This document shows positions 1 to 55,601 of a DNA stretch of 55,601 nucleotides, piece by piece. The notes under the pieces are model-generated. The model had not been told where the DNA came from. It saw only the letters and a list, made by a program, of their open reading frames with translations, and searched no databases. Location of the stretch: positions 1-55,601 of the IMG/VR virus record IMGVR_UViG_3300048591_000469; one strand, given 5' to 3'. The stretch is from a virus (taxonomy: Duplodnaviria > Caudoviricetes). Position 1 is the stretch's first letter. Each line of letters begins with the position of its first letter. The position numbers and the translations under genes were made by a program.

Positions 1-127
1 CACTTTTTCAACCGTAGGAGACAAAGCAATGAATCCCGAAGAGCTTCAACGCATGATCGCCGACGGCGTCGCTGCTGCGCTAAACCAACAGCGTGAGCAG
101 GATGCCGCCGCCGCCGCCGCCCAAGCC
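1..127. repeat. Direct terminal repeat, left copy (identical to 55475-55601)
   Basis: Sequence 1-127 recurs exactly at 55475-55601. The 127-nt length matches a common assembler k-mer, indicating a circular contig. Confidence 0.95.
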
Positions 128-1474
128 GCCTTTGACGCCGCCGTCAAGACCGAAGTCGACAAGCGCCTTGCGGGCAACCCCGCTGATCGCCGCTTGCCCT
201 CCTTCGAAGCGCCGAACGTCGCCCAATTCGGCAACATCTGGAAATACGACAACCTCGACGAAACGGACCTCGCCATCGCCATCGGCGTCCTCAAAGCCGC
301 CCGGTTGACCAACCGCTCGGAAGGTCCGAGCGAGAACTTGTTGCGGGCATTGGCCGTTCGCTTGGCCGACATGCCCGACCCGGACGGGCAATACATCGCC
401 TCGAAGATGGCGATGAAAGCCGCCGGGATGCCCGTCAAAGCCAACGAATTGAACCAGTCGACCCTCGCCTCTTACGGCGACGAATGGGTCGGCGTCACCT
501 ATTCGACGCAGATCTGGGACAAGATTCGCTTCGAAGCGCCGATTGTATCGAAGCTCCCGACCGTCGTCATCCCGCAGGGCAGCGAGTCGATTATCATTCC
601 GCTGAACTCGGCGTCCCCGACCTTCTACAAGGTCGCTCAAGCGTCGGCGATGGGGTCGAACCCGGGTCAATTGACGAACGTCGTCACCACCTCGAAGATG
701 TCGACCGACAAGGTCACGTTGACCGCCGGGAAGATGGGCGCGGCGGTCGCCTACACCGGCGAACTCGAAGAGGATTCGCTCTTGCCCTGGGCAAGCGAAC
801 TGCGCCGGGACTTGACCGCCGAAGCCGCTGAGGTCCTCGAACATTTGGTCATCGACGGCGACGTCGCCCCGGGCGCAACGACCAACATCAACCATATCGG
901 CGGCACACCGGGCGCGACCGACGTCTATACGCTGTTCGACGGCTTCCGCAAGCTGGCCCTTGTGACCAACACCGCCAACTCCCGCGACGGCGGCGTCCTG
1001 GACGTCTCCGACTTCCTGGAAACCGTCAAGCTCATGGGCGTTTCGGGCATCAACGCCATCGACCGCAGCAAGGTCAGCCTCCTGATCGACGTCAATACGC
1101 ATTGGTGGACTCTCGAACTGCCCGAAGTGTTGACGAAGGACGTCTTTGCGATGCCTACCATCGAAAGCGGGGCGCTCAAGTCTATCTGGGGCTACGAGGT
1201 CATCCCGACCGCCAACATGCATCGCGCCAGTGCGGTCCGCTTCGCCAATACGGCGGGCAAGGTCGACCAGACCACACCCGGCAATAACACAAAGGGCAGC
1301 ATCGTGGCGGTTCGTTGGGACCGCTGGCGCTTGGGCTACAAGCGCCGTGTAACCTTTGAGGTTGAACGGTCGGCGATGGCGGACGCCTCGACCATTGTCC
1401 TCATGATGCGCTGTGGCTTGCTGGCCCGCGACAACGAAGCCTCGGCGGTCAGCTACAACATCTCGAAGGTCTAG
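29..1474 (+). CDS. Major capsid protein (HK97 fold); also the C-terminal part of a protease-capsid ORF starting at 54879
   Basis: 481 aa with an Ala-rich scaffold-like N-terminus followed by capsid-like motifs (GKMGAAVAYTGELEEDS; EHLVIDGD; FDGFRKLA; IWGYEVI). GTAGGAG Shine-Dalgarno (SD) before ATG 29; lies ahead of the neck genes. Confidence 0.9.
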   Translation: MNPEELQRMIADGVAAALNQQREQDAAAAAAQAAFDAAVKTEVDKRLAGNPADRRLPSFEAPNVAQFGNIWKYDNLDETDLAIAIGVLKAARLTNRSEGPSENLLRALAVRLADMPDPDGQYIASKMAMKAAGMPVKANELNQSTLASYGDEWVGVTYSTQIWDKIRFEAPIVSKLPTVVIPQGSESIIIPLNSASPTFYKVAQASAMGSNPGQLTNVVTTSKMSTDKVTLTAGKMGAAVAYTGELEEDSLLPWASELRRDLTAEAAEVLEHLVIDGDVAPGATTNINHIGGTPGATDVYTLFDGFRKLALVTNTANSRDGGVLDVSDFLETVKLMGVSGINAIDRSKVSLLIDVNTHWWTLELPEVLTKDVFAMPTIESGALKSIWGYEVIPTANMHRASAVRFANTAGKVDQTTPGNNTKGSIVAVRWDRWRLGYKRRVTFEVERSAMADASTIVLMMRCGLLARDNEASAVSYNISKV

Positions 1475-26362: not shown

Positions 26363-26572
26363 GCATTGGAGTCGGGGCAAAACAAAGGGACCCCGACACG
26401 AAGCCGAAGTCCCTCTGGGGCGGTCACGGTTGGAAGGTGAGAGAGCTAACCGTGACCACGTATCAACTTAGATGATCTACCTGTTGGTTTCTCCTTGTGG
26501 TGAGTGAATGTTGGGTTGGGTGACGGGGATGAGCGTGCAGCCGCTTGTCCCCGTCGTCATTTTCAAACAGTG

Positions 26573-26645
26573 TACGCCCGAGAGGATTTGAACCTCTGAC
26601 CTCCACCTCCGCAGGGTGGCGTTCTATCCGCTGAACTACGGGCGC
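26573..26645 (-). tRNA. tRNA-Arg, anticodon GCG (no encoded CCA); candidate attP
   Basis: 73-nt cloverleaf: acceptor GCGCCCG/CGGGCGT, D-arm GTTC/GAAC, anticodon arm CCACC-CTGCGGA-GGTGG, T-arm AGAGG-TTCAAAT-CCTCT. Confidence 0.95.
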
Positions 26646-28839: not shown

Positions 28840-29040
28840 CCGTTGCACCCCGAACCCCGCCGCAAAGGTCCGCACAAGGGACCCGTTGCGCCGGTCGCCG
28901 ACCCGCACCCGCCGACCCAGACACGGACCTTTACGGCGACCGGCGGGTCCCGTTTTTCAAACATGGGACCCTTGCGCCGACCCGCCCGACGGGCTAGACT
29001 GTACGTGTATGAACATGTGCCGATTCGAACATATTTGTAC

Positions 29041-42535: not shown

Positions 42536-43900
42536 ATGGCGGAAGCGCCGCAGAACCCGTTCGTCAACCGCATCGTCGGCTACGGGGTCAAACGGGCATC
42601 GGAGTTCATTAAGAACCCGCTGAATCACCGACGACATCCCCAGGTGCAACGGGACGCCATGCGGGCGTCGCTCGGGACCCTGGGCTGGATTGCCGCCGTC
42701 ATCGAGAACCAGCGCACCGGGCGCTTGATCGACGGTCACGAACGCATCGACCAAGCCCTCGACGGCGACCAGGAGGTTCCCTACCTGATCGTCGACCTGG
42801 ACGAGGACGAGGAGATGCTCGCCCTGGCGACGTTCGACTACATCACCTACCTGGCGCAAACCGACAAGGACGCCTACGCCGCCCTGATGGCCCGGGTCAC
42901 GACGACCGACGCCACTCTGCGCGACGTCCTCGACCGACAGGCGAAGTCGGTCGGGCTATTGCTCGACAAGCCCGACACCGACAAGGACGCCGACGCCAAG
43001 ATGGACGCCGCCGCCGAGTTGCGGGAGATCTGGCAGGTTGCGCCCGGGCAATTGTGGCATCTGGGACCGCACCGTCTCCTCTGTGGCGATGCGGGCATCC
43101 GCACCGACATGGAACGCCTGATGGGTGACGACCGCTTCGCCTGTGTCTGGACTGACCCGCCTTACGGCGTGAATTACGTCGGCAAGACGAAGGACGCCCT
43201 CACCATCCAAAACGACGCCTTCGAGAACCTCGACGCGCTCGGGGCGTTCCTTTTTCAAACATTCAAGCTGGCAGCATCCTTCGCCGTCCCGTCAGCGCCG
43301 TTCTACATGACCGCCCCGCCGGGACCGAACCTGTTCGCCTTCGGGGACGCCCTACGCCAAGCCCAATGGCGGGTCCAACAAATCCTGACCTGGGTCAAAG
43401 ACTCGATGGTCCTGGGGCATTCGGACTACCACTACCGACACGAAGCGATCCTTTACGGTTATCTGCCCGGTCCCAACTTCCCGGGACGCGGGCGCAGCCC
43501 CTCGTTCTGGTACGGCGACAACGCCCAAACCTCGATCTTCGAGGTCGACCGCCCCAAAGCCTCCGAACATCACCCCACGATGAAGCCCGTCGACCTGGTG
43601 ACGGCGATGCTTCGCAACAGCACCCGCCCCGGCGACATCGTCTTTGAACCGTTCTCGGGGTCCGGCACGACCCTGCTGGCTTGCGAACAGTTGAACCGCC
43701 AATGTCGGGCGATGGAGGTCGATGCCCGCTTCGTCGCCGTCGCCCTGCAACGCTACGCCGATGCGACCGGCGACCGCCCGGTCCTGGCGCAGCATTTTCA
43801 ACCATCGCCCGCCGCCGCCCCTCGCCCTGACACGGACCTTTCCGGCGACCTGCGGGTCCCGATGGGCGTCCTCGTTCCCGGACCCGAAAGGCTACACTAA
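42536..43900 (+). CDS. ParB-like N-domain fused to an N6/N4 DNA methyltransferase
   Basis: NPLNHRRH and LIDGHER; TDPPY, HPTMKP, FSGSGTT. Confidence 0.92.
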   Translation: MAEAPQNPFVNRIVGYGVKRASEFIKNPLNHRRHPQVQRDAMRASLGTLGWIAAVIENQRTGRLIDGHERIDQALDGDQEVPYLIVDLDEDEEMLALATFDYITYLAQTDKDAYAALMARVTTTDATLRDVLDRQAKSVGLLLDKPDTDKDADAKMDAAAELREIWQVAPGQLWHLGPHRLLCGDAGIRTDMERLMGDDRFACVWTDPPYGVNYVGKTKDALTIQNDAFENLDALGAFLFQTFKLAASFAVPSAPFYMTAPPGPNLFAFGDALRQAQWRVQQILTWVKDSMVLGHSDYHYRHEAILYGYLPGPNFPGRGRSPSFWYGDNAQTSIFEVDRPKASEHHPTMKPVDLVTAMLRNSTRPGDIVFEPFSGSGTTLLACEQLNRQCRAMEVDARFVAVALQRYADATGDRPVLAQHFQPSPAAAPRPDTDLSGDLRVPMGVLVPGPERLH

Positions 43901-44286
43901 TGGGACGGAAAGCGATCCTCGACGTCAACCCGGAAATCACCAAGCGACTCTGCGAGATTCTGTCCCTGGGTAACTACATCGAAGCCGCGTGCGCCTACGT
44001 CGGCATCTCGGAAACGTCCTACTATGCCTGGGTGCAACGGGGCGAGAAGGACCTCAAGGCGGGCAAGGAGTCGAGTTTTACGGAGTTCGTGAAGGCAACT
44101 AAAAAAGCACGCGCCGAAGCCGAGGTCGTCTCGGTCGCCCGCATTCGTGACGCCGCCTCCAGTGGCGAATGGCAAGCCGACGCCTGGTTTCTGGAACGTT
44201 CCTTCCCCGACCGATGGGGTCGCCGCCGCCAGGACCTGCACGTCGACAGCAACCAGCCCGCCGTGATTATCAACATCGATATATGA
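43900..44286 (+). CDS. terS: Terminase small subunit
   Basis: HTH (AACAYVGISETSYYAW), WQADAWFLER..P..WGR; directly upstream of the large subunit. Confidence 0.8.
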   Translation: MGRKAILDVNPEITKRLCEILSLGNYIEAACAYVGISETSYYAWVQRGEKDLKAGKESSFTEFVKATKKARAEAEVVSVARIRDAASSGEWQADAWFLERSFPDRWGRRRQDLHVDSNQPAVIINIDI

Positions 44287-45737
44287 GTCGACGCCGCAAG
44301 GCGGACGCCCCGGGAACCGTCACATACGACTTCTCGAAGCTCTGCGGTTTCACCGCCAAGCAGTTGACGGCGACCCAGGTCGCCGACCGCCATCGCTATA
44401 CCCTGTTCGGCGGGTCCCGAGGACCGGGCAAATCCTACTGGCTTCGCTGGTATATGTTGCGGTTGCTCTTCATCTATTTTCAACACAGGAAGCGCGAGAA
44501 CGTGCGCGTTATGTTGGGGTGCGAGGACTACCCGACTCTCTACGAGCGGCAGATCGTGAAGATCATCGCCGAGTTTCCGAGCGACGTCGGGACCTATTGG
44601 CCTTCCAAGACCGAGTTTCGCCTTGCGCCCCGCTTCGGCAGCGGGGTCCTGGCGCTACGTAACCTGTTGGAACCCGACCGTTACCAATCCGCCGAGTTCG
44701 CCGCCATCGGCATCGACGAGTTGACCAAGAACCCGGAAACGACCTTCAACACCCTGCGCGGGTCGTTGCGTTGGGCGGGCATCCCGGACACCCGCTTCGT
44801 CGCCGCAACCAATCCCGAGGCGAATTGGGTCCGACGTTACTGGATCGAGCGGGACTTTCCCGAGGCACTACGCCCGGACGCCGACCAGTTCGCCTTTGTC
44901 CCGGCGCTCCCGGACGATAACCCGCATCTGGACCCGTCCTATTGGCGCATGCTCGAAACGTTGCCCTCCGAGGCGATGCGCCAAGCATGGCGCTACGGGG
45001 ACTGGTACGCCGCCGCCGAAGGGCGGGTCTATGGCGAGTTCAACGCCGCCAACCTGACCGAGGATGAACCCGACCCGGACCTGCCCATCGAGGTCGCCAT
45101 CGATGACGGCTATTTCCCGGACCCACGCGCAACGCTCTTCATCCAAAAGCGGGCGGACGGGTCGGTCCTGGTCTTTGCCGAGCTATACGAGCGCCAGGTC
45201 CTGGAGGAGTCGACCATTGAACACATCAAGGACTACGTCGAAGCGTTGAACGCAACGCTTTATCAAACCTCCCTGATCGACCTGGTCGACGCCGTCGTCA
45301 AGCCCGAAGGCGAAAGCGTCCTGGACGTTCTGGACGTTGCGCCCGGGTTCTACCGGATGCCGCAGATGGCGATTGTGTCCCACGAGGCGATTCAATTGCG
45401 GCATCGGTTGACCGCCGCCGGGATTCCCGCCCGCAACTGGATGGGCGTCAAGCGTCCCGCCGGGACGAGCAGCATGCGCCTCGCCGCCATCAACTTGACC
45501 CGGCGCATGATCTGCGACGGAAAGGGCGTCCGCCGCATCTTCGTTCACACCCGCTGTCGCAACCTGCGCGACGAAATCACGGCGGGCTACAAATATCCGG
45601 ACGGCGAGAATTCGCCCTCGGCGATGCCTGCCGACGGCAATGATCACGCCTGCAACGCCCTGGAGTCGTGGGTCTGGTATCGGTTGGGAGGGGCAGCCAT
45701 GTCGGCGGAAAGCATGGTCGACTTCCCGGAAACATAG
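44283..45737 (+). CDS. terL: Terminase large subunit
   Basis: GGSRGPGKS, IGIDE, ATNP, DNPHL, IDDGY..P, NDHACNA. Confidence 0.92.
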   Translation: MSRRRKADAPGTVTYDFSKLCGFTAKQLTATQVADRHRYTLFGGSRGPGKSYWLRWYMLRLLFIYFQHRKRENVRVMLGCEDYPTLYERQIVKIIAEFPSDVGTYWPSKTEFRLAPRFGSGVLALRNLLEPDRYQSAEFAAIGIDELTKNPETTFNTLRGSLRWAGIPDTRFVAATNPEANWVRRYWIERDFPEALRPDADQFAFVPALPDDNPHLDPSYWRMLETLPSEAMRQAWRYGDWYAAAEGRVYGEFNAANLTEDEPDPDLPIEVAIDDGYFPDPRATLFIQKRADGSVLVFAELYERQVLEESTIEHIKDYVEALNATLYQTSLIDLVDAVVKPEGESVLDVLDVAPGFYRMPQMAIVSHEAIQLRHRLTAAGIPARNWMGVKRPAGTSSMRLAAINLTRRMICDGKGVRRIFVHTRCRNLRDEITAGYKYPDGENSPSAMPADGNDHACNALESWVWYRLGGAAMSAESMVDFPET

Positions 45738-46031: not shown

Positions 46032-49000
46032 ATGACCCTAATTGACCGCATCGCCGCGATGCTTGGCTACACCAAAGCGCAGCGTAAGCCCCTGCCGCCG
46101 ACCTGGATGTCGCAGACCGCCGACTACCTGGACACCGAACCGCCCGCCGACCTGGAAGTTCACTATGACCTGTACGAAAAGCTCTCCTGGCTGCAGGTCG
46201 CCATTGGACGGGTCGCCGACACGGCGGCTTCGGCCAAGTTCGAGGTTTTCAAACATAGCAAGGAGAAGGAGTCGGCCATTCAAGCCCACGACTTCGAGAA
46301 ATTGCTTCAGAACCCGAACCCCGACACCGACCGTCACCAACTAATGCATGGGACGTTTCTCTACCTCAGCCTCGGGGCAGCGGCTTGGTGGCTCAACCGC
46401 AGCGGTCCCGACGTCCCGCCCGATGAGATTTGGCTCATCCCGCCGCACCAACTGCGCGCCGTTCCCGACGAACGCATGTCGGTCCGGGGCTACCTCTACA
46501 ACCCCGGCGACGGGCGGGAGATTCCCCTGGAACCCTGGGAGGTTGTCCACTTCCGCAAGTTCAACCCCAAATCCCGCTACATCGGCCTCCCAACCGCCCG
46601 CGCCGTCGACCAGATTTCCCAGGGCGACATTGCGATGCAACGGTGGAACCGGAACCTGTTCGCCAAAGACAACGCCAAGTTACCCGGCGCATTGGCGTTC
46701 TCGGACCCCATCGATGACGTCACCTGGCGAACCATCAAGCAGGACATCAACGATCAGCACGGCGGGACCAAGCGCAGCCTCATGATGCTTCGCAACGTCG
46801 GGCAGGGCGGCGTCCAGTGGCTCAACATGGCGCTTTCCCAGACCGAAATGCAATTCCTCGAAAGTCGGGTCGCCAACAAGGAGGAGATCTTCGCCTTGTT
46901 CGCCCCGGGCTTGGCGTCGGTCCTGGCGGTCAACGCAACCGAAGCGAACGCCGTCGCCGGGAAGCGCACCTTCATCGAGTTCGGAGTTTGGCCCACCATG
47001 ACGGCGGTCGCCGAACGCATCACCTCGCAAATCCTGCCCTCCTACGGTGACGACCTGGTCGGGCGCTTCGAAGATATCCGGGTCACGGACCGGGCGCTCA
47101 AGCTCCAGGAGATGAACGCCTACGCGATGGTTCACACCGTCGACGAGGTCCGCAAGGAGTTTTATCAAGCCAAGCCCATCGGCGACTACCGGGGCGACTT
47201 GCTGCTGGCCGAAATCCCGCAGGGCATCACGCCCGACCCCGATGCCGAGGAACCCGCGCCGCCGCCGCAAAGTCCCGCACAAAGCCCCTTCGACGAACAA
47301 GCGCCCGAGGACCCGTCAAGCCCACAGGAACCGCAGGACACGGCGATTGGACCCGATGCCGTCGGTCAGGACCTCGACAACCCCGACGCCCCGCCAGAGG
47401 ACCCGCAAATCGAAGCCAAGAGCGCCGAATTGCGCCGTTACCGGCGATGGGTCGCCAAGCGCATTTGGAAGGCATCGTTCGACCCTGACGCCTTCGAATC
47501 GCCGTTCCTCACGACCGCCGACCGCCAAGCCGTCTTGGCCGAGGCGGGTTGGCACACCTGGCCCGATCACGAATTCTTCGACGCCACGAAGGGCGGACCC
47601 GGCAGCGGCAATTGGGGACACGACGGGCGCAGAGGGCAACGGGGCGGCTCACGCCCGGGCGGCGGGCTGCACCTGCAGCGGCTGGACCCGGCGTCAACCG
47701 TTGACGAGCGTAAGCAAGCCTTCGGCGTCTATCGCCAGTTCGTCCCGACATTGTCATCCCCTGAGCGCGCCGCACGCGAAGCGCACGTCAACCGCATCGT
47801 CGCCAATTCCGGCACGGTCGGCACACAGGGGCAAATGCGCCCCTTCGTGGGCGAAGCGCAGACCGAGATGGCGAAGGCGCTCATGATGCACGACAGCCGC
47901 GTCCTGGAGCAGGTCAAACAGATCCGCGTCGCCCACAACGCCGCCGCATGGCAAGCCGAAGCGGTCGCCGCCGGAATGAAGCCCGCCAGTGCGCCGAACG
48001 TCCTGGGTTTCACCTACGCCATGAAGGGTCAAGCGGGCTACGGAACCATCTGGCTCCAGTCCTACGGCAACAGCCAGCGGGAACGCATGACCCTCCACCA
48101 CGAAATCGGACATACGGTCTACGGGGCGACGACGCAGCAGGGTCGCCAAGACTGGATCGACTTCTACAATGCGGGCGGCAACCATCACACTGCCTATTCG
48201 GGGACCAACCGGGCGGAGGGTTTCTCCGAATCCTACGCGGGCTGGTTGTGGGCGAAGGGAACGCAAGCGCCCGACGCCGTCACCCGGTCGAACCTGAGCG
48301 CCGTCCCGTCCCTCGCCGCTTACCGAGACACGTTTAATTCGGTCGCCAATGTCATCGCCGCCATCCCGGCGTCAACGCCCACCAAAGCCGCCCGCATCAC
48401 TCGTGCGGACCTTTTCGGCGACGTGAAGGCGCTCACCCGCACCAACCTCCTCGCCGCCCACGAGTCGACGATCAACGTCGATTGGCCCAAGTTGAGCGCC
48501 GCCGCCCAATCCCAATGGCAGGTACGCCACGAAAAGAGCGACCTTCCGGGCGTCCCGGGCGACGCCCGAGTCTGGTTCGCCGACGTGGTCGTCGCCCACG
48601 ATGCCGCTTGGCAGGGTGACGGCAACGGCAAGAGTCTATTCATCGAGGCGCTTGCGCCCTGGGTCGCCGCCCTCGAAACCGCACAGACGGCGCTTCGGGG
48701 CAAGGGTCCGCTCAAGGCAGGATTTTCAAACCCTCTCCGGGTCGCCTCGGCTCGTTGGGAGTCGCTTCCGCCCGACCGCCGTCGCCAGTGGGTTGACGGC
48801 TACGATGATCTGGATTGGGTCGGCAAACCGCCCCATCCCGTCGAGGGGTTCGCCGATGCCGTCGTTGCCCACCGGGCGCTCGACGGGGCGTCACCCGACG
48901 AGATGATGGACCTCGAGGGGTTCCAGCCCTACCGGGACCTATTCGGTCGCTTAGGGACGGTCCTGGACCCTAAGCCGGGGCAGTCCGCCGCCCCGACCAA

Positions 49001-49898
49001 AGGCGGACCCGGCAGCGGCAACTTCGGTCATAAGGGTCGCCCCGGGTTTCGGGGCGGCAGTGTTGCGGGCGGCGGGTTGGGCGCAATCGGCGTTGATCGC
49101 ACGGCAACGCCCGACGAGCGCCGCAACGCCGCAGCCGCATTCCGGCAGAAAGCGCCGGTGACGGTCCCGACCCAGGACCCGAAGCGGGCGAAACTACTCG
49201 CCTCGACGACCTTCGAAGCGTTCGGTTCCACCGACGCCGAGGTCGACACTGCATTGTCAAGCATTGGCTTGACCCGGGAGGATGTCACCTACATGATGGC
49301 GCTCGACGGGTTCAACGGCGAGGTCGCTTCTTTCTTGCAGGGCGGGAAGCTGTTCGTTGCGGGCGAATACACCCTGGAGAGCAATCCGAACGTGACGGCG
49401 ACTGTGATGCGTGGCTTTTACCAAGAAGGCGACGAATGGCACGTCGACCACATGAAATTCGGCATCGACGGCATCCATCACGGTCGGGGAACCGCCCAGG
49501 ACCTCTACGCCCGCCAGATCGAAACTTACAAAGCGGCGGGCATCGTCGCCGTTCACACCCATGCCGACATCGACGTCGGCAGGTACGCGTGGGCGAAGAT
49601 GGGCTTCGAATACGACGAAAGCGGCGGGAGCAACATCGCCCGCAAAACGAAGCAATTCGAGCATTGGGCGAAGAAGCTCGGCATCGACCCACCTGACGGC
49701 GGCTGGCCTACGTTCCAACGGCCCCATGATTTCGCAACCTACAAGCATCCCGACGGGCGCAAGGTCAACGCCAACGATATGGGCAACTGGCAGGGCAAAT
49801 TCCTCCCGGGCGATTACGACATCGGGAAGGCATTCATGCTCGACGACAACGGACACGGCGACTGGTACGGCGTTCTGCCGCTCAAGGGGCAACCATGA
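46032..49898 (+). CDS. Portal protein (HK97-type, ~aa 1-395) fused to zincin-protease and GNAT-like domains
   Basis: LLQNPNP, EVVHFR.FNP..RYIGL, MQFLESR portal motifs; HHEIGH plus NRAEGFSE; HGRGTA...GRYAWAKMGF. Confidence 0.9.
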   Translation: MTLIDRIAAMLGYTKAQRKPLPPTWMSQTADYLDTEPPADLEVHYDLYEKLSWLQVAIGRVADTAASAKFEVFKHSKEKESAIQAHDFEKLLQNPNPDTDRHQLMHGTFLYLSLGAAAWWLNRSGPDVPPDEIWLIPPHQLRAVPDERMSVRGYLYNPGDGREIPLEPWEVVHFRKFNPKSRYIGLPTARAVDQISQGDIAMQRWNRNLFAKDNAKLPGALAFSDPIDDVTWRTIKQDINDQHGGTKRSLMMLRNVGQGGVQWLNMALSQTEMQFLESRVANKEEIFALFAPGLASVLAVNATEANAVAGKRTFIEFGVWPTMTAVAERITSQILPSYGDDLVGRFEDIRVTDRALKLQEMNAYAMVHTVDEVRKEFYQAKPIGDYRGDLLLAEIPQGITPDPDAEEPAPPPQSPAQSPFDEQAPEDPSSPQEPQDTAIGPDAVGQDLDNPDAPPEDPQIEAKSAELRRYRRWVAKRIWKASFDPDAFESPFLTTADRQAVLAEAGWHTWPDHEFFDATKGGPGSGNWGHDGRRGQRGGSRPGGGLHLQRLDPASTVDERKQAFGVYRQFVPTLSSPERAAREAHVNRIVANSGTVGTQGQMRPFVGEAQTEMAKALMMHDSRVLEQVKQIRVAHNAAAWQAEAVAAGMKPASAPNVLGFTYAMKGQAGYGTIWLQSYGNSQRERMTLHHEIGHTVYGATTQQGRQDWIDFYNAGGNHHTAYSGTNRAEGFSESYAGWLWAKGTQAPDAVTRSNLSAVPSLAAYRDTFNSVANVIAAIPASTPTKAARITRADLFGDVKALTRTNLLAAHESTINVDWPKLSAAAQSQWQVRHEKSDLPGVPGDARVWFADVVVAHDAAWQGDGNGKSLFIEALAPWVAALETAQTALRGKGPLKAGFSNPLRVASARWESLPPDRRRQWVDGYDDLDWVGKPPHPVEGFADAVVAHRALDGASPDEMMDLEGFQPYRDLFGRLGTVLDPKPGQSAAPTKGGPGSGNFGHKGRPGFRGGSVAGGGLGAIGVDRTATPDERRNAAAAFRQKAPVTVPTQDPKRAKLLASTTFEAFGSTDAEVDTALSSIGLTREDVTYMMALDGFNGEVASFLQGGKLFVAGEYTLESNPNVTATVMRGFYQEGDEWHVDHMKFGIDGIHHGRGTAQDLYARQIETYKAAGIVAVHTHADIDVGRYAWAKMGFEYDESGGSNIARKTKQFEHWAKKLGIDPPDGGWPTFQRPHDFATYKHPDGRKVNANDMGNWQGKFLPGDYDIGKAFMLDDNGHGDWYGVLPLKGQP

Positions 49899-50737
49899 TC
49901 ATCGAAGCGGGACCGAAAGACCGCCCACCCGGGGACACCGACATCGAATTCTGGGGCGTCGGTCCCGGCGAGGACGGCATCCTCCCCTATTGGGAGATTT
50001 TCAACCTGCCCGCCCCGACCTGGGCGAAACCGCCGGTTAAGGGCGGACCCGGGTCAGGCAACTTCGGACATAGAGGTCGCCCTGGCTTTCGGGGCGGCAG
50101 CGTCGCGGGCGGGCGGGGCGGCGGGGCGGCGCTCAACGCCGAGCGAACGATTGGAACGCTGGTCAACGCCGCTCAGGGGCGCACCTTCGGCGACTTCGAC
50201 TTCGAGACGATTCCCGACGACTACACCGACTGGAACGCCAGCCTTAGCCCTGACGAGCGCAGCGCCATCACCTATTACGTCGGGGCGGGTTACGCCCTGA
50301 TCAACCGGCGCTTACGGGCGGAGGATACGTCTAACGCCAAAACCAATGACCGGGTCCGCTTGCTCGATGCGGCGCTTGCCCGCAGCGAAATACCCGCCGA
50401 CGGCATGCTCTATCGCGGCATCACAGGGCGACCCTTCCCCGAGGAACCCGGGGCGGTCTTTGCTGATCTCGGCTTTTCGTCGACGTCGGTCAACCCCGGC
50501 ATCGCCGACAACTTCAGCCAATCGGCCCGGGTCAACGACCCCAATAACGCCGGACCCGTCAAGGACTCCCAGGTCATGCGAATCAAGGTCATGAAGGGGC
50601 AACGGGGCGCATACGTGTCGAATTTAGGGATGGCGCTCGAGGACGAAATTCTCCTGCCGCGTGGGTCACTCTTCAAGGTCGAAGCGGTCACAAAAGATGC
50701 CAATCGAACCATCATAGACGTGATATACTTGGGGTAA
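49895..50737 (+). CDS. ADP-ribosyltransferase, R-S-E (VIP2/C3/Alt-like) class
   Basis: Y..INRRLR, LYRG, GFSSTS, EDEILLPRG. Confidence 0.9.
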   Translation: MIIEAGPKDRPPGDTDIEFWGVGPGEDGILPYWEIFNLPAPTWAKPPVKGGPGSGNFGHRGRPGFRGGSVAGGRGGGAALNAERTIGTLVNAAQGRTFGDFDFETIPDDYTDWNASLSPDERSAITYYVGAGYALINRRLRAEDTSNAKTNDRVRLLDAALARSEIPADGMLYRGITGRPFPEEPGAVFADLGFSSTSVNPGIADNFSQSARVNDPNNAGPVKDSQVMRIKVMKGQRGAYVSNLGMALEDEILLPRGSLFKVEAVTKDANRTIIDVIYLG

Positions 50738-50738
50738 T

Positions 50739-50921
50739 ATGAGCGACAAATTTTCAACCAACACCAGCGATCTAGTCTTTTTGCAGGACGATGCGGCCAT
50801 TGAGCGATTCCTCAAGGAACGAGGTCGCCCATTGACGTTGCCCGATTGGGCGCAACCCGTCGACCCCGCACCCACCGAACCCGACGCAGCTGAGGATGTC
50901 CCGGGAGGGCAACCGGCATGA
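50739..50921 (+). CDS. Small acidic protein after the ART gene
   Basis: 60 aa; starts 1 nt after the ART stop and overlaps the next start (ATGA). Confidence 0.6.
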   Translation: MSDKFSTNTSDLVFLQDDAAIERFLKERGRPLTLPDWAQPVDPAPTEPDAAEDVPGGQPA

Positions 50922-52537
50922 TCTTCGTGAATCCCTACACCGGCGAAGTGTACGAAGGGGAATTCCCCGCAACGGTTGAACTGCCCGAAGCCGAAGAAGG
51001 CGACAACGGGCTGATCGCAATGGTCCTGGCGACCTACGATGACGGCGATGTCGGCTACGCCGATGCCGTCGTGCGCTATATGTTCCTGCAAGGCTACGCC
51101 GCCCTCGAAGAGGACGATTTGTCCGACGAGGAACTGGCGGCGCTTGGGTTGGAACGGGACGAGGTCGACGACGTCGCCTTCGACGAGGACGAAGAGGGCG
51201 AGGACGAGGACGAAGAAGAGGACGAAGAGGACGAGGATTCTCAAACAAGACCGCCCGCCAAAGGCGGACCCGGGTCGGGCAACTGGGGACATCTGGGGCG
51301 ACGAGGCAACCGAGGCGGGTCCCGACCCGGCGGCGGACTGGCGCGCATCGGGACCGACCGGGCAGCGTCGCACAACCGGCGCGTCGAAGTCTCGTTCAGT
51401 TACCGCAACCGCCGCGCCGACGAGATGATCGCCGAGGGCGCAAACCCACCCGGCAACCGCATGCCGCGGGCGGGCAACTGGCATCCGACCACACCGAAGC
51501 CGCCCAAGCTCCCGGGGCAGGGCGGGCTACCAACGACGCCAAGACCGGGGACTGGTACGAATCGACCTCCCACCCCGCCAACGACGCCCACAGCCCCGCC
51601 CAAGCCGACGACGCCCAAGCCACCGGCCACACCCAAGCCACCGAAGCCGCCGGTCGCACCCAAGCCGCCCACACCGCCGCCCGCACCGCCGCCGCCGCCC
51701 AAGCGTCCCGGCCAAGATGCACCCGGCGAATTCGACGATCACTTCAAGAAATTTGGGAAGAGCGGCTACAAGCGGGACGGGCAAGAAATCGCCGACATCG
51801 TCGGGGCAAAAATCGACCCGAACGATGTTAACGGCTCGTACATGGCAGTTATACGGGGAGCGCAAGCATCCACTTCCCAGATGAAGGGCGTCGTCTCGCA
51901 AGACGACAACTTGGCGGTCATCATGGAGGCGCAGGGTTTTCATTCGAAGCCGAAGGTCGTCGACAAGGACGGCATGGACGAGATCATCCGGGACGGCGGC
52001 ATCGAGGTTTATCGTGGCGTTCGGGGCGGGTCCCTGCAGGGGACCGTCGACATGGTCCAAAGCTACGCCACCGGCGACCATTTCGTCGGGCAGGGCATTT
52101 ACGGCAACGGAACTTACACCGCCGAGGACTACTCGTTCGCGAAGGGTTACGCCAATCAGTACGCCAACGGCGTGATGCGTATCGCGCTCCACAAGGATGC
52201 GAAGGTCATCGACTACCCTGCCGCCAAAGCGGCAACCGATGCCCTCAGCCGCTCGAAAGCGAAGAAGACCGTTGCCGACCGTGCGGTCGTCGCCGACAAC
52301 GTCGGGCGATGGGCGGCGCTCAACGGCTACGATGCCATCCGGGTCAACGTGCAAGCCGAGAATTACGGCGGCGTCGGTCACTTCTTCGTCATCCTGAACC
52401 GGGGCGCAGTCGCTGTCCAGAACCCGAAGGACGGGGACGTCGCAGATCCGGGCTACCGACCGGCGGTCACGAATAAATACGTCCCGCAAAACACAATCCC
52501 AAACCCGAAGCCGCCCCTGCCAAAGGCGACCTCGTAA
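50918..52537 (+). CDS. Acidic leader, Gly-rich tag, Pro-rich linker and a second ART-like domain
   Basis: EVYRGV, GQGIYGNGTY......AKGYA, GYDAI, FVILNR resemble ART-fold strands; the terminal catalytic Glu is not evident. Confidence 0.7.
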   Translation: MIFVNPYTGEVYEGEFPATVELPEAEEGDNGLIAMVLATYDDGDVGYADAVVRYMFLQGYAALEEDDLSDEELAALGLERDEVDDVAFDEDEEGEDEDEEEDEEDEDSQTRPPAKGGPGSGNWGHLGRRGNRGGSRPGGGLARIGTDRAASHNRRVEVSFSYRNRRADEMIAEGANPPGNRMPRAGNWHPTTPKPPKLPGQGGLPTTPRPGTGTNRPPTPPTTPTAPPKPTTPKPPATPKPPKPPVAPKPPTPPPAPPPPPKRPGQDAPGEFDDHFKKFGKSGYKRDGQEIADIVGAKIDPNDVNGSYMAVIRGAQASTSQMKGVVSQDDNLAVIMEAQGFHSKPKVVDKDGMDEIIRDGGIEVYRGVRGGSLQGTVDMVQSYATGDHFVGQGIYGNGTYTAEDYSFAKGYANQYANGVMRIALHKDAKVIDYPAAKAATDALSRSKAKKTVADRAVVADNVGRWAALNGYDAIRVNVQAENYGGVGHFFVILNRGAVAVQNPKDGDVADPGYRPAVTNKYVPQNTIPNPKPPLPKATS

Positions 52538-52576
52538 ACGTCCAGGCGCACGAATCGCAAGCAAAGGAACAAGCAG

Positions 52577-52900
52577 ATGATTACACCCGACGACAGCCGG
52601 GAATTGGCTCGGATTTTCAACCTGATCGGCAACGGGCTGACCTCCGCCGACAAGGACGCGCTGCTCGACGCCGCCCTTGCCGCCGACTCCATCGCCAAGA
52701 TGCCCGCCCCGCTCAAGGCGAAGCTCGTAGCCGCCGCCCTGCGGGGCAAGACCCAAGAGGAATTCCTCGCCCTCGACGAAGCCGCCCAACGGGCGCTGCT
52801 TGGCCCGAGCGACGTCGGCGGTGACGGCGACGAAGAGGAGGACGAGGACGAGGACGAACCCGAACCCGTCGCCAAAACGGCCCGCCGCTACTATCCATGA
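52577..52900 (+). CDS. Small protein with acidic tail
   Basis: 107 aa; AAGGA SD; ends EEEDEDEDEPEPVAKT. Confidence 0.6.
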   Translation: MITPDDSRELARIFNLIGNGLTSADKDALLDAALAADSIAKMPAPLKAKLVAAALRGKTQEEFLALDEAAQRALLGPSDVGGDGDEEEDEDEDEPEPVAKTARRYYP

Positions 52901-54285
52901 TGTCCCTGCACCCCGACCCTGTCGGACGCAATGCTCCTTCCCTTGCTGGCGACCTGGCGGTTAAAACCCGCCAGGTCGTGCCACATCTGGACGGAAACGA
53001 CGTCGAACGGGAAGCCCTCGAAGCCCGTCATGCGACCGCCCTCGAGGGCGCTTTCCGCAAAATCATCCGGGCATTGGTCCCACCCGGCACGACCGCCGAG
53101 TCGCTGGCGGACCAGGGAGCCGTTGCGCGGACCTTTACGGCGTCCCTGCAGCCGCTCTATGACGCGTGCTACACCATGCTCCGGGACGCCGCCATGTTTG
53201 GCGCTTCGATTGGGCTGGAGCAGGTCGAAGCCCTGCAAATCGCCCCGGCGAAGGCGGACATTGTCATTGCCGACCTGACCGACTGGTCGATGGTCAACGA
53301 CGACGTCGTCGCATGGCTGACCAACCCGAACGCCAATTACACGCGCCAACTCGTCGAATCCATCGGCCAAAATTCGGCGAGCCAGGTCTACCGACTCGTC
53401 AATGCGTGGGTTCAGGACGGTCGCCCGTTGAACGCACTGGTCGCCGACCTGGAAACTATGCCCTTCTCGCCGCAGCGGGCGCGGCTGATCGCCACAACCG
53501 AAGTTACCCGGGCATTCGCCCAGGGCAAAAACATCGCTTGGCGCAGGACCGGCGTCGTCGAGCGCCGTCGCTGGCACACCGGCAACGACGAACTGGTCTG
53601 CGAGGTCTGTCAACGCCTTGACGGGCGGGAGGTTGGCTTGGACGAACCCTTCGATGACGTCGGGCGCATCATGTATCCGCCCGCACACCCGCGCTGCCGT
53701 TGCACCGTGCAACCCGTCATCCCGGTTTCGTCGCCGGTAAGCACCGACTACACGTCACCCGGCCTACGCGACCCGGTCATTACTTTTTCAAACCGTCGCA
53801 ACCAGGATGACGACCGCTTGAGTCTGAGCGGCATTCCCTTCCGTCAAGCTCCTGCTGCCGCATGGGGTAAAATCCCTGATCGGGCGTTGCCGTCCGAACC
53901 GTATGACCTGCCGCCCCTCACGCCGACCGCACGACGACGGGGCGTCGGCGTCCTCGTCGTGGAAGAGGACGGGCGGGTCTGGGTTGTAAAGACGGACGAT
54001 GATGACATGTACGAGATTCCGACCGTCGCCGTCCCGAAGGGGCTGACGTTGCAACAAACCGCCCTCTGGCACGCATACCAGGCAACGGGGTTGATCGTCG
54101 ATTTGGTCGACTACGTCGTCGACAGCCCGGTCGACGGCATCGTCACCCGCTACTATGTCGCCAAGCGCAGGGCGGGCGCTCCCTGGGGCGCACGCAGCAA
54201 GCGATGGGTTTCCCTGGCGACAACCCGTCACGCCGCCAGCTACGCCAACCGCATGGCGGACCGCAACATTCTGCGTCAATTCTAG
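52897..54285 (+). CDS. MuF/SPP1 gp7-like minor head protein with a C-terminal degenerate NUDIX-like domain
   Basis: RARLIATTE, W.T..DE.VC..C..LDG, PPAHPRCRC; C-terminal GVGVLVVEEDGRVWVV...P......TA......TGL. Confidence 0.85.
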   Translation: MMSLHPDPVGRNAPSLAGDLAVKTRQVVPHLDGNDVEREALEARHATALEGAFRKIIRALVPPGTTAESLADQGAVARTFTASLQPLYDACYTMLRDAAMFGASIGLEQVEALQIAPAKADIVIADLTDWSMVNDDVVAWLTNPNANYTRQLVESIGQNSASQVYRLVNAWVQDGRPLNALVADLETMPFSPQRARLIATTEVTRAFAQGKNIAWRRTGVVERRRWHTGNDELVCEVCQRLDGREVGLDEPFDDVGRIMYPPAHPRCRCTVQPVIPVSSPVSTDYTSPGLRDPVITFSNRRNQDDDRLSLSGIPFRQAPAAAWGKIPDRALPSEPYDLPPLTPTARRRGVGVLVVEEDGRVWVVKTDDDDMYEIPTVAVPKGLTLQQTALWHAYQATGLIVDLVDYVVDSPVDGIVTRYYVAKRRAGAPWGARSKRWVSLATTRHAASYANRMADRNILRQF

Positions 54286-54767: not shown

Positions 54768-54871
54768 CCCGGGGTTAATGCCCATGCTACAATCGACCTA
54801 ACACAGCCACATATTGAGGCGCAAAAGGCGCAAGGATTCCCGTCCTTGCGCCTTTTTTTTGTTCCCGGGGA
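54764..54871 (+). promoter_or_regulatory. Late promoter plus leader terminator (copy 2)
   Basis: TTGACC-18 nt-TACAAT with TGn; GGCGCAAGGA/TCCTTGCGCC stem followed by T8. Confidence 0.75.
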
Positions 54872-54878
54872 GAGAGCT

Positions 54879-55601
54879 ATGTTCCGTTCCATCATTGCAA
54901 TCAAGACCGCCAACGGCGAATGGACGCTCGACGTTCTCGGCAACCCCTATTTCGGCCCCAATAACGGGCGCGACGTCGACGGCGAGTATTTCAGCCCGTC
55001 GACCAAGTTTCACGAGGACAAATACCCGTTGCCGCCGGTCGTGTACTATCACGGATTCGGCGACGACAAGAAGCCCGTCGGCGAACCCGAATACATCGGT
55101 CGCACCGTGAAACGCTGGACAACCGAACAGGGAGTCTGGTATCGCGTCGTCCTCGATCAGGCGAGTAACCTCGCCCGCAAAGTTTGGAACGCCGCCCAAC
55201 AAGGCATCGCCCGGGCGTCGTCGGGTTCCAACCATCTCTCCCGGGTCGCCAAGACCGGCGAGATCGTGCATTGGCCCGTCACCGAACTTTCCCTCTTTGA
55301 GATGGCGGGCAAGAAACGCCCCGCCAATGGCTATGCCGTCGCCGTCCCGGTGACAGCAAAGGTCTGGAAAGCGGCGGGCTTGGACCTGCCGCTCGACTTC
55401 GTTTCTCAGCCGAAGGCAAAGCGTAAAGGCGCAGCAGCGCAGGACGCAAGCGAGGCTTTGAACCATACACCGATCACTTTTTCAACCGTAGGAGACAAAG
55501 CAATGAATCCCGAAGAGCTTCAACGCATGATCGCCGACGGCGTCGCTGCTGCGCTAAACCAACAGCGTGAGCAGGATGCCGCCGCCGCCGCCGCCCAAGC
55601 C
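54879..55601 (+). CDS. Putative prohead protease domain, in frame with the capsid (missing from the ORF track because it runs off the window end)
   Basis: My translation: MFRSIIAIKT...GRDVDGEYF...VVYYHG...GVW...ASSGS...WPVTELSL...PAN. No stop before ATG 55503 (equivalent to position 29), 208 codons downstream. Confidence 0.8.
   Translation, partial: MFRSIIAIKTANGEWTLDVLGNPYFGPNNGRDVDGEYFSPSTKFHEDKYPLPPVVYYHGFGDDKKPVGEPEYIGRTVKRWTTEQGVWYRVVLDQASNLARKVWNAAQQGIARASSGSNHLSRVAKTGEIVHWPVTELSLFEMAGKKRPANGYAVAVPVTAKVWKAAGLDLPLDFVSQPKAKRKGAAAQDASEALNHTPITFSTVGDKAMNPEELQRMIADGVAAALNQQREQDAAAAAAQA
55475..55601. repeat. Direct terminal repeat, right copy
   Basis: Identical to 1-127. Confidence 0.95.

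Follow-up and report, generated by a model that had tools for sequence, protein, structure and literature searches.

Why should one glycine-rich peptide occur four times in the head module of a tailed phage, each time in front of a different enzyme-like domain? The question is posed by the IMG/VR record IMGVR_UViG_3300048591_000469 (Duplodnaviria; Caudoviricetes), whose entire 55,601 nucleotides form the window analysed here. A six-frame regular-expression (regex) scan of this DNA recovered the peptide, K-GGPGSGN(W/F)GHxGRxGxRGGS (hereafter the tag), exactly four times, always on the plus strand, in three open reading frames (ORFs) of the head module: a portal fusion of 1288 amino acids (aa) followed by ORFs of 280 and 539 aa. 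All four copies lie between the portal and MuF genes, and the codons of their leading lysines (47589, 48999, 50039 and 51260) are precisely those reported in a first-pass annotation of the same DNA. An alignment of the copies has 19 invariant columns (K, GGPGSGN, GH, GR, G, RGGS and GG). At the DNA level their identity to the reference copy is only 62-80%, so they are not recent duplicates, and the peptide has instead been kept by selection. A profile hidden Markov model (HMM) built from 381 tags of other proteins gave the four copies 32.9-39.1 bits as against 6.8 bits for the next-best six-frame stretch, and neither this HMM nor the regex detected degenerate copies elsewhere in the genome in any of the six frames. 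The comparisons set out here identify the tag as the N-terminal header of a modular unit that recurs in phage head modules, and we propose that this unit may be the building block of capsid-cargo precursors.

A profile of the four copies, searched against 1.84 billion representative proteins, matched 3,924 protein clusters at E<=0.001, of which 671 scored at <=1e-10 and 59 at <=1e-30; the top matches reach 3,154 residues in length and 10 matched tag stretches. Our tag statistics cover the best 150 of the 3,924 clusters, in 117 of which a strict regex delimits 381 tags; the other 33 proteins have variant tags outside that regex, and no count includes them. The core consensus is GG-x-GSGN-(F/W)-GH-x-G-R-P-G-x-x-GGS, with 13 positions the same in 380-381 of the 381 tags. 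The regex itself determines most of these, but positions 11, 14 and 17-19 lie outside it. A plain flexible linker is rejected by such invariance, five positions of which were not imposed by the search. The tag region has no Pfam, NCBIfam or PHROG match in this phage's proteins or in the multi-tag proteins P0016 and P0027, and the corresponding region of the 280-aa ORF, used as the query of a word-index search, matched that ORF only. A tblastn search of 50,697 phage records with a 34-aa tag came back empty, probably owing to low-complexity filtering.

The genomic setting of the tag is equally consistent. Among 73 IMG/VR loci that were fetched, 62 have regex tags, amounting to 216 tags in 137 ORFs that are co-directional within each locus; two or more tagged ORFs are present in 41 loci, and up to nine stand in a row. 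Neighbouring genes, detected with HMMs seeded from this phage's own proteins, include MuF in 40 of the 62 tag-bearing loci, a portal of the window's type in 22 and the large terminase (TerL) in 12, with at least one of the three within 10 kb in 49. Thus the head-module context, which the first-pass annotation had noted for this one phage, is general. A stringent DNA pattern run against 185,579 cellular species genomes gave only 19 stretches, nearly all in metagenome-assembled genomes and 13 of them near MuF, portal or TerL, while a related-locus search of cellular genomes gave 582 matched stretches with zero confirmed.

Within the proteins, the first tag lies at a median position of 63, and in a quarter of cases within 25 residues of the protein start. 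Successive tags are separated by a median of 230 residues, about one domain, and the stretch after the last tag has a median of 292 residues (5th percentile 134). These lengths place the tag on the N-terminal side of the modules. It is almost never found near the end of a protein and often stands 4-30 residues from its beginning, lying at most 30 residues from the predicted start in 43 of the 117 proteins. The shortest leaders are those of MRIK-GG (4 aa) and MTSLK-GG; every listed leader ends in its protein's usual pre-tag residue or a close one, and none of the 117 proteins starts M-GG. Leaders of proteins with leucine or alanine before the tag (the L/A class) have a common amphipathic ARLL..A.LR.L pattern. 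Further, the 48-residue leader of the 280-aa ORF, which there precedes an ADP-ribosyltransferase (ART), recurs before a GNAT-like module in P0189 and P0191; hence the leaders too are modular.

The residue immediately preceding the GG (position -1) is K in 61 of the 117 proteins, L/A in 33, N in 6, D in 5, E in 4, R in 3, H in 3, F in 1 and Q in 1, counts that are biased to K as both the tag profile and the IMG/VR scan pattern contained this residue. The pre-tag lysine, which the first-pass annotation took to be the site, is therefore one of several protein-specific classes and not universal. Of 99 multi-tag proteins, 91 keep to a single class, and so do the different ORFs of one phage. A signature extends upstream of it: 1) R or K occupies position -3 in 114 of 140 L/A tags, as against 20 of 176 K tags. 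2) [LIV] occupies the same position in 9 of 9 E tags and in all four tags of the E-type locus L095. 3) Identity within versus between proteins is 0.77/0.26 at -1, 0.21/0.10 at -2 and 0.33/0.14 at -3, and lies at background beyond this, as with 0.09/0.06 at -8. Conservation thus ends abruptly upstream of -1.

Homologous cargo is found behind different classes, with ART homologues in the L/A-type P0064 and P0025 and the E-type P0070; hence the class goes with the carrier protein and not with the cargo domain. By locus, the window-type portal occurs in 22 of 48 K-type loci versus none of 14 non-K loci (Fisher p 0.001, relatedness uncorrected). Untagged neighbours include Phage_portal_3 in four ORFs and DUF2213 in one in seven L/A loci, and the same families in two ORFs and one ORF, respectively, in four D loci; 15 sampled K-type loci have, among the matches listed, Phage_capsid in four ORFs, Phage_portal in two and Peptidase_S78 in two. 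Among cellular genomes the class follows the host taxon: in the contigs L076-L094 all those from Clostridia, Lachnospiraceae and Oscillibacter are D-type (the Clostridia and Lachnospiraceae ones being prophages), those from Dehalococcoidia and Omnitrophota are K-type, those from Terriglobus and Sulfuricaulis are RA[AL]-type, and that from a Methanomassiliicoccales archaeon is R-type. Judged by these comparisons the pre-tag residue behaves like a constrained site, and the pattern fits the P1 residue of a protease site joined to a universal header.

The consensus of the site recognised by gp21, the head protease of T4, is in its fuller form L/I-x-E. The [LIV]-x-E pattern before the E tags resembles the LIE site that the text of PMC9026906 cites for this enzyme.

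What stands behind the tags in this phage is a different domain each time, as the first-pass annotation had proposed, and the tags are modular headers of distinct enzyme domains within the head module; its four assignments are of unequal standing. The ART of the 280-aa ORF is secure, matching PF03496 ADPrib_exo_Tox at 2.2e-25 with the R, S-T-S and E-x-E motifs in place (YRG, SSTS, EDE), and has untagged homologues in Streptomyces phage Araceli and a Caudoviricetes record. For the last 274 residues of the portal ORF, which have no Pfam match at E<=1, an AlphaFold2 (AF2) model (pLDDT 82) has 56 PDB matches at E<=0.001, among the matches listed mostly GNAT-type acetyltransferases, and the R/Q-x-x-G-x-G/A motif is present (HGRGTAQ, aa 1150-1156); the model thus confirms a GNAT fold. 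The second ART, towards the C-terminus of the 539-aa ORF, probably represents an ART-PolyVal domain, as indicated by language-model features: the Atlas feature search returns PF18760 at 0.92 with 24 of 30 hits, the Atlas structure rows align over aa 305-514, and the region has no Pfam match at E<=1. The proposed zincin is a candidate marked by HEIGH at residue 690 (nt 48099) and a Peptidase_M78 match of only E 0.067, with no PDB or PHROG match. PDB sequence searches with the ART-like, GNAT and HExxH parts, and with the protease discussed below, gave chance-level matches only.

The domain repertoire of other tagged proteins is comparably diverse. Of the 86 proteins that exceed 1,100 residues we took every third, 29 in all, for a Pfam tally, and recovered ART-PolyVal in 8, MuF in 7, ADPrib_exo_Tox in 6, 2H ligase-like domains in 4, portal in 3, PolyA_pol in 2, DRAT in 2, HD in 2, several GNATs and Tad3 in 1. 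Zincin-type families were present in 3 (SprT-like 1, Peptidase_M90 1, ATLF 1) and MPTase-PolyVal in none.

The GNAT module has relatives that differ in their headers. Three of them (P0190, P0191 and P0192) have a degenerate header (e.g. PAGDPQGGQW...), indicating that a cargo domain can remain conserved even where its tag has decayed. The cultured Herelleviridae Shanette, JL and CP-51, which are Bacillus phages, encode untagged GNAT-like homologues (27-28% identity, E 3e-5) and next to them a 1087-aa HExxH protein, with the portal and head protease following about 1-4 kb downstream (in Shanette, NC_028983.1, at L096 7251-11796). The GNAT-like and HExxH proteins of these phages share an N-terminal header of their own, ..SKA.V..TG..KLVKRAVQVKG..GRTFTRMQW..P, which may be an analogous label in a culturable system.

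Which protease could act at such a site? The capsid gene of this phage is a fusion that begins with a domain of about 175 residues, continues with a helical scaffold-like stretch and ends in an HK97-type capsid domain. Across 34 homologues of the N-terminal domain H58 (YYHG) is invariant, S114/S115 (ASSGS) are nearly so and a Glu is conserved. Its AF2 model (pLDDT 81) finds as best PDB folds the herpesvirus assemblins (E 8.8e-3 and up, TM 0.2-0.3) and also matches T4 gp21 (prob 0.60, TMt 0.41), both weakly. The 241-aa N-terminal part has no Pfam family at E<=1, Peptidase_S78 included, and no NCBIfam or PHROG match. We regard the domain with moderate confidence as a head protease of the assemblin superfamily. 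The prohead protease of HK97 cleaves after Lys, and the first-pass annotation had built its proposal on an enzyme of that type; the protease of this phage is no member of Pfam Peptidase_S78 and is, by fold, weakly assemblin-like. A protease HMM found the window's type in one other locus only, L010, both of whose two tags are preceded by K. In L010 (15490-17370) and in protein P0169 a 2H (LigT-like) phosphoesterase, and not a capsid protein, is the fusion partner of this domain; hence in some phages the head protease itself carries an effector, an arrangement that would accord with co-packaging of the protease and effectors.

The first-pass annotation had also pointed to sites of the form K followed by A, S or T at domain boundaries of the capsid, portal and MuF proteins. 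These sites are present at the places quoted, but their frequency is that expected by chance from amino-acid composition (observed versus expected 14 vs 12.4 in the portal ORF, 10 vs 9.7 in the protease-capsid fusion and 3 vs 2.1 in MuF), and they are rejected as marks of domain boundaries.

Taken together, these observations lead us to the following proposal: 1) The three ORFs would be precursors of capsid cargo built from a repeated unit, which runs from an upstream domain or short leader through a protein-specific cut site (here (T/V/A)-K) and a 20-residue header, near-invariant as GGxGSGN(F/W)GHxGRPGxxGGS, to an enzyme domain. 2) Two units would enter the prohead fused to the portal C-terminus, and the two free-standing ORFs would do so through their leaders, the header or both. 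3) The head-maturation protease would be the assemblin-like domain of the scaffold-capsid fusion, and by cutting after Lys it would yield four enzymes starting with GG, namely the HExxH protein, the GNAT and the two ADP-ribosyltransferases. 4) These would be ejected from the capsid along with the DNA and would then act on host targets at an early stage. Packaging, cleavage between K and GG, the part played by this particular protease, ejection and a role for the header itself are what we infer by analogy with T4 Alt and the T4 internal proteins and with the ejection proteins of SPN3US. On whether the ORFs are indeed cargo precursors, cut before the GG by the head protease and ejected with the DNA, we find the evidence evenly balanced. 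Of the first-pass interpretation, the modular tag, its recurrence in head modules and the constrained site stand; the universal lysine and the additional sites fall away; and cleavage, packaging and ejection are still conditional.

Several points count against this proposal, apart from the bias of the class counts mentioned above. The most serious is that the header is invariant across phages that differ in portal, capsid and protease family. Such invariance is not explained by a fast-evolving protease recognising the header, which must therefore do something more general. Tags within one protein are more alike also at other variable positions (0.53-0.66 versus 0.28-0.34 between proteins), so part of the uniformity at -1 is owed to common descent or concerted evolution. 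The pre-tag class tracks head-module type, but this link is confounded by phylogeny. The fold match that identifies the protease is weak, and no protease family could be linked with a pre-tag class. BLAST clustering of 819 untagged neighbour ORFs gave 575 clusters, too fragmented for protease annotation, and Pfam Peptidase_S77 or S78 was found in none of five tag-bearing records, including a 93%-complete E-type one, S77 being silent in control genomes as well. Finally, the tag HMM finds no tag at the junction of MuF with its C-terminal part, and thus the header is not used by every fused cargo of the phage. That part of MuF is weakly Nudix-like (Pfam E 0.014; NCBIfam E 6.9e-4).

On a broader reading the header would be a universal, self-contained cargo label of tailed phages, independent of the head-protein family and joined to an exchangeable, lineage-tuned protease site of one to three residues; such a label might act in threading or ejection, in self-processing or in DNA tethering. 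We offer this as a tentative extension that we consider on the whole doubtful.

A somewhat less probable alternative is that the header remains uncut and serves as a docking or co-assembly peptide, that is, as a loading signal for the procapsid interior, the scaffold, the portal or MuF, or as a sticker between modules, in function akin to the encapsulin peptides considered below. This alternative draws strength from the free-standing ORFs with leaders of 4-12 residues, which have only the tag in common with other tagged proteins, and from a conservation of the tag far beyond the need of a cut site. Multi-tag proteins, with up to 10 matched stretches, would be multivalent, and the likeness at several positions of tags of one protein is what co-assembling copies would show. 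Yet a binder of structural proteins should co-vary with them, and the core stays the same whichever portal and capsid family it accompanies; modules fused to the portal would need no docking signal; and the class-specific residue with its upstream signature ([LIV]xE or [RK]x[LA]), placed exactly at the N-terminal edge of the tag, is left unexplained. We consider docking unlikely.

Nucleic-acid binding by the header, with the cargo tethered to the packaged DNA and leaving with it, is to our mind improbable. DNA is the partner common to all these phages and would explain an invariance that spans head families. In 343 and 326 of the 381 tags positions 12 and 13 are R and P, respectively, and the copies of this phage read GRRGxRGGS or GRPGFRGGS; we take the GRPG core to resemble an AT-hook and the RGG boxes of these copies to resemble RGG motifs. 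Two of the four copies, however, are without the Pro, and the invariant GSGN-x-GH half has no counterpart in an AT-hook. Moreover, in known phages, as the text of PMC9026906 has it, cargo is loaded before DNA.

The header might instead cleave itself without any protease, the Asn with a His three residues on (N-F/W-G-H) driving cyclisation of the Asn. We presume a likeness of this element to the NPTH loop of FlhB/EscU, where cleavage proceeds by Asn cyclisation. Both residues, N6 and H9, are present in 381 of 381 tags, where the selecting regex required them, and independently in all four copies of this phage; the surrounding glycines would permit a strained turn, and a chemical mechanism would explain invariance across lineages. 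It would explain neither the class-specific residue before the GG and the signatures upstream of it nor the conserved GRPGxxGGS half, and tags a few residues from a protein start would have nothing useful to release; we hold this mechanism to be very improbable. We see an equally slight chance that a cargo-borne peptidase processes the tags, for while the first tag of the portal fusion is followed by the HExxH module and Iyer et al. predict, in the text of PMC5512222, autoproteolysis of polyvalent proteins by their MPTase domains, the universal tag would then depend on a peptidase most carriers lack, given the scarcity of zincin families in the Pfam tally above, the absence from it of MPTase-PolyVal and the finding by local searches of the window's HExxH module in just three other proteins among the 150 proteins and all locus ORFs.

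The proposal of a cargo precursor released by a head protease is best viewed against the organisation of the genome (Table 1). The first and last 127 bases of the record are identical; the phage genome is therefore complete, assembled as a circle of 55,474 bp, with about 63% G+C. The head module runs from the small terminase-like gene and TerL through the portal fusion, the 280-, 60-, 539- and 107-aa ORFs, MuF and a 187-aa ORF to the protease-scaffold-capsid fusion.

Table 1. Coordinates of head-module features in the window; a hyphen after the lysine of each tag marks the proposed cut
Feature	Position	Strand	Evidence
Small terminase-like ORF, 128 aa	43900..44286	+	weak Sf6_terminase match, E 0.0064
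Large terminase	44169..45737	+	Terminase_6N, 1.8e-5
Portal domain of 1288-aa fusion ORF (46032-49898)	46032..47471	+	Phage_portal aa 57-375, 1.2e-32; phrog_2662 aa 21-480
Tag copy 1, ATK-GGPGSGNWGHDGRRGQRGGS...	47589..47673	+	regex, alignment, repeat comparison, tag HMM
HExxH zincin-like candidate module and about 190 aa of unknown fold	47674..48998	+	HEIGH motif; Peptidase_M78 E 0.067
Tag copy 2, PTK-GGPGSGNFGHKGRPGFRGGS...	48999..49083	+	regex, alignment, repeat comparison, tag HMM
GNAT-fold acetyltransferase-like module with conserved C-terminal extension	49084..49898	+	AF2 model, PDB folds, homologues P0187-P0193
48-aa leader of 280-aa ORF (49895-50737)	49895..50038	+	translation; similar leader in P0189, P0191
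Tag copy 3, PVK-GGPGSGNFGHRGRPGFRGGS...	50039..50123	+	regex, alignment, repeat comparison, tag HMM
R-S-E ADP-ribosyltransferase domain	50219..50719	+	ADPrib_exo_Tox aa 109-275, 2.2e-25; YRG, SSTS, EDE
60-aa ORF, no family matched	50739..50921	+	Pfam, PHROG, local searches
114-aa leader of 539-aa ORF (50918-52537), acidic run at its end	50918..51259	+	translation; acidic repeat family
Tag copy 4, PAK-GGPGSGNWGHLGRRGNRGGS...	51260..51344	+	regex, alignment, repeat comparison, tag HMM
Probable ART-PolyVal (PF18760-like) domain after Pro-rich spacer aa 217-245	51830..52459	+	Atlas features
107-aa ORF with acidic tail, no family matched	52577..52900	+	Pfam, PHROG, local searches
MuF (SPP1 gp7-like), weak Nudix-like C-terminal part, untagged junction	52897..54285	+	Phage_Mu_F 3.5e-14; TIGR01641
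Candidate prohead protease domain, N-terminal in protease-scaffold-capsid fusion ORF	54879..55403	+	34 homologues; AF2 pLDDT 81; weak fold matches
Protease-scaffold-capsid fusion ORF, crosses circular junction	54846 to 55474, continuing 1-1474	+	translation
HK97-type major capsid domain	440..1474	+	Phage_capsid 8e-7; TIGR01554
PVK-ANEL, proposed capsid maturation site	K codon 437-439	+	position only; cleavage inferred

Three further features of the genome may be recorded. A 19-base motif, GTGCGGACCTTT(A/T)CGGCGA, has 10 copies at <=3 mismatches as against 0.14 expected, three on the minus strand (17914, 20651, 28857) and seven on the plus strand (28921, 33046, 35670, 39771, 43830, 48403, 53125); the copies at 28857 and 28921 form a divergent pair, and two lie within the coding sequences of the portal fusion and MuF. 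The motif might serve as a phage-specific promoter or as some other DNA-level site. There is one tRNA-Arg with anticodon GCG (26572-26645, minus strand), and a 454-aa ORF just 5' of the terminase genes (42536-43900) appears from its translation to combine a ParB-like N-terminal part with a DNA methyltransferase.

If the header does mark capsid cargo, a profile search with it lists thousands of enzymes that would be delivered at infection, mostly by unculturable phages, and these include ADP-ribosyltransferases, acetyltransferases, 2H phosphoesterases, HD and nucleotidyl-transferase domains and a Tad3-like Thoeris inhibitor. Were it in truth a universal label, thousands of uncultured phages would share a portable system to load, free and deliver arbitrary enzymes, and the tagged modules would together catalogue the effectors injected for host takeover and anti-defence. 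From the class-specific residue at its edge one would learn the specificity of head proteases that are otherwise unrecognisable. Further, a short portable label with its cut site could serve to load foreign proteins into phage capsids, as has already been done via the T4 targeting sequence.

Among peptides that direct cargo, the header may be likened to those of the encapsulins, HK97-fold shells whose short glycine-rich cargo-loading peptides are usually C-terminal and remain uncut; both are glycine-rich and borne by unrelated enzymes, although they differ in sequence. More broadly, the system appears to belong to the known theme of packaged, protease-processed phage effectors and polyvalent proteins. 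The latter, as the main text of PMC5512222 describes them (Iyer, Burroughs, Anand, de Souza, Aravind 2017), are single chains, encoded in portal-terminase modules, in which several unrelated effector domains are strung together (ART-PolyVal, ARTs, GNAT, 2H, zincins, MuF or portal fusions); packaging, injection and release by proteolysis are predicted for them. The Pfam repertoire of the tagged proteins matches the one given there; the portal ORF of this phage likewise joins two unrelated modules, the HExxH module and the GNAT fold, behind its portal domain; and TerL, portal, MuF and capsid genes flank the tagged ORFs. The release proposed in that text is autoproteolysis by MPTase, a domain with no match in this phage's proteins, whereas the tagged proteins have a shared header and a class-specific site, and the header could thus offer a handle on how polyvalent proteins come apart. 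The main text of PMC5512222 makes no mention of glycine, linker, spacer, interdomain or low-complexity, though its supplementary alignments might show the motif.

In T4, by the account in PMC9026906, the internal proteins IPI-III and Alt have N-terminal propeptides of 7-10 residues ending in a gp21 site, and the 4-aa and other short leaders of tagged proteins resemble those that gp21 removes from Alt and IPIII. The T4 cargo likewise includes a packaged and ejected ADP-ribosyltransferase, Alt itself (PMC9026906). In T4, however, the conserved functional part is the leader that is removed, while in the tagged proteins conservation falls on the downstream side of the presumed cut, in a peptide that the enzyme would retain; and unlike the T4 capsid-targeting sequence the header repeats inside long polyproteins and is common to unrelated phage lineages (compare PMC9026906). 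The ejection proteins of SPN3US, as treated in PMC10052503, lose N-terminal propeptides to the prohead protease gp245 at a defined P3-P1 motif; most of these propeptides are long (111-254 residues), with two of 20-24, and the cut sites as given there have no shared header after them, whereas here the header follows the presumed cut. The polymorphic MuF toxins of temperate phages (Jamet et al. 2017, PMC5576092) offer the same theme of a head-module protein with variable C-terminal toxin or enzyme domains. The tagged modules differ from these in being portal-fused or free-standing; the tagged ORFs of this phage have no MuF domain, and its own MuF fusion, with only a weak Nudix-like tail, is untagged. 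The text of PMC5576092 makes no mention of glycine, linker, cleavage, proteolysis, motif or pre-toxin, and the tag motif, sought in several spellings, was not found in the papers and preprints searched. Thus, within a theme that is otherwise familiar from T4, SPN3US and the polyvalent proteins, the joining of a header peptide to a class-specific site is the distinguishing feature of the tagged proteins, and one that is apparently undescribed.

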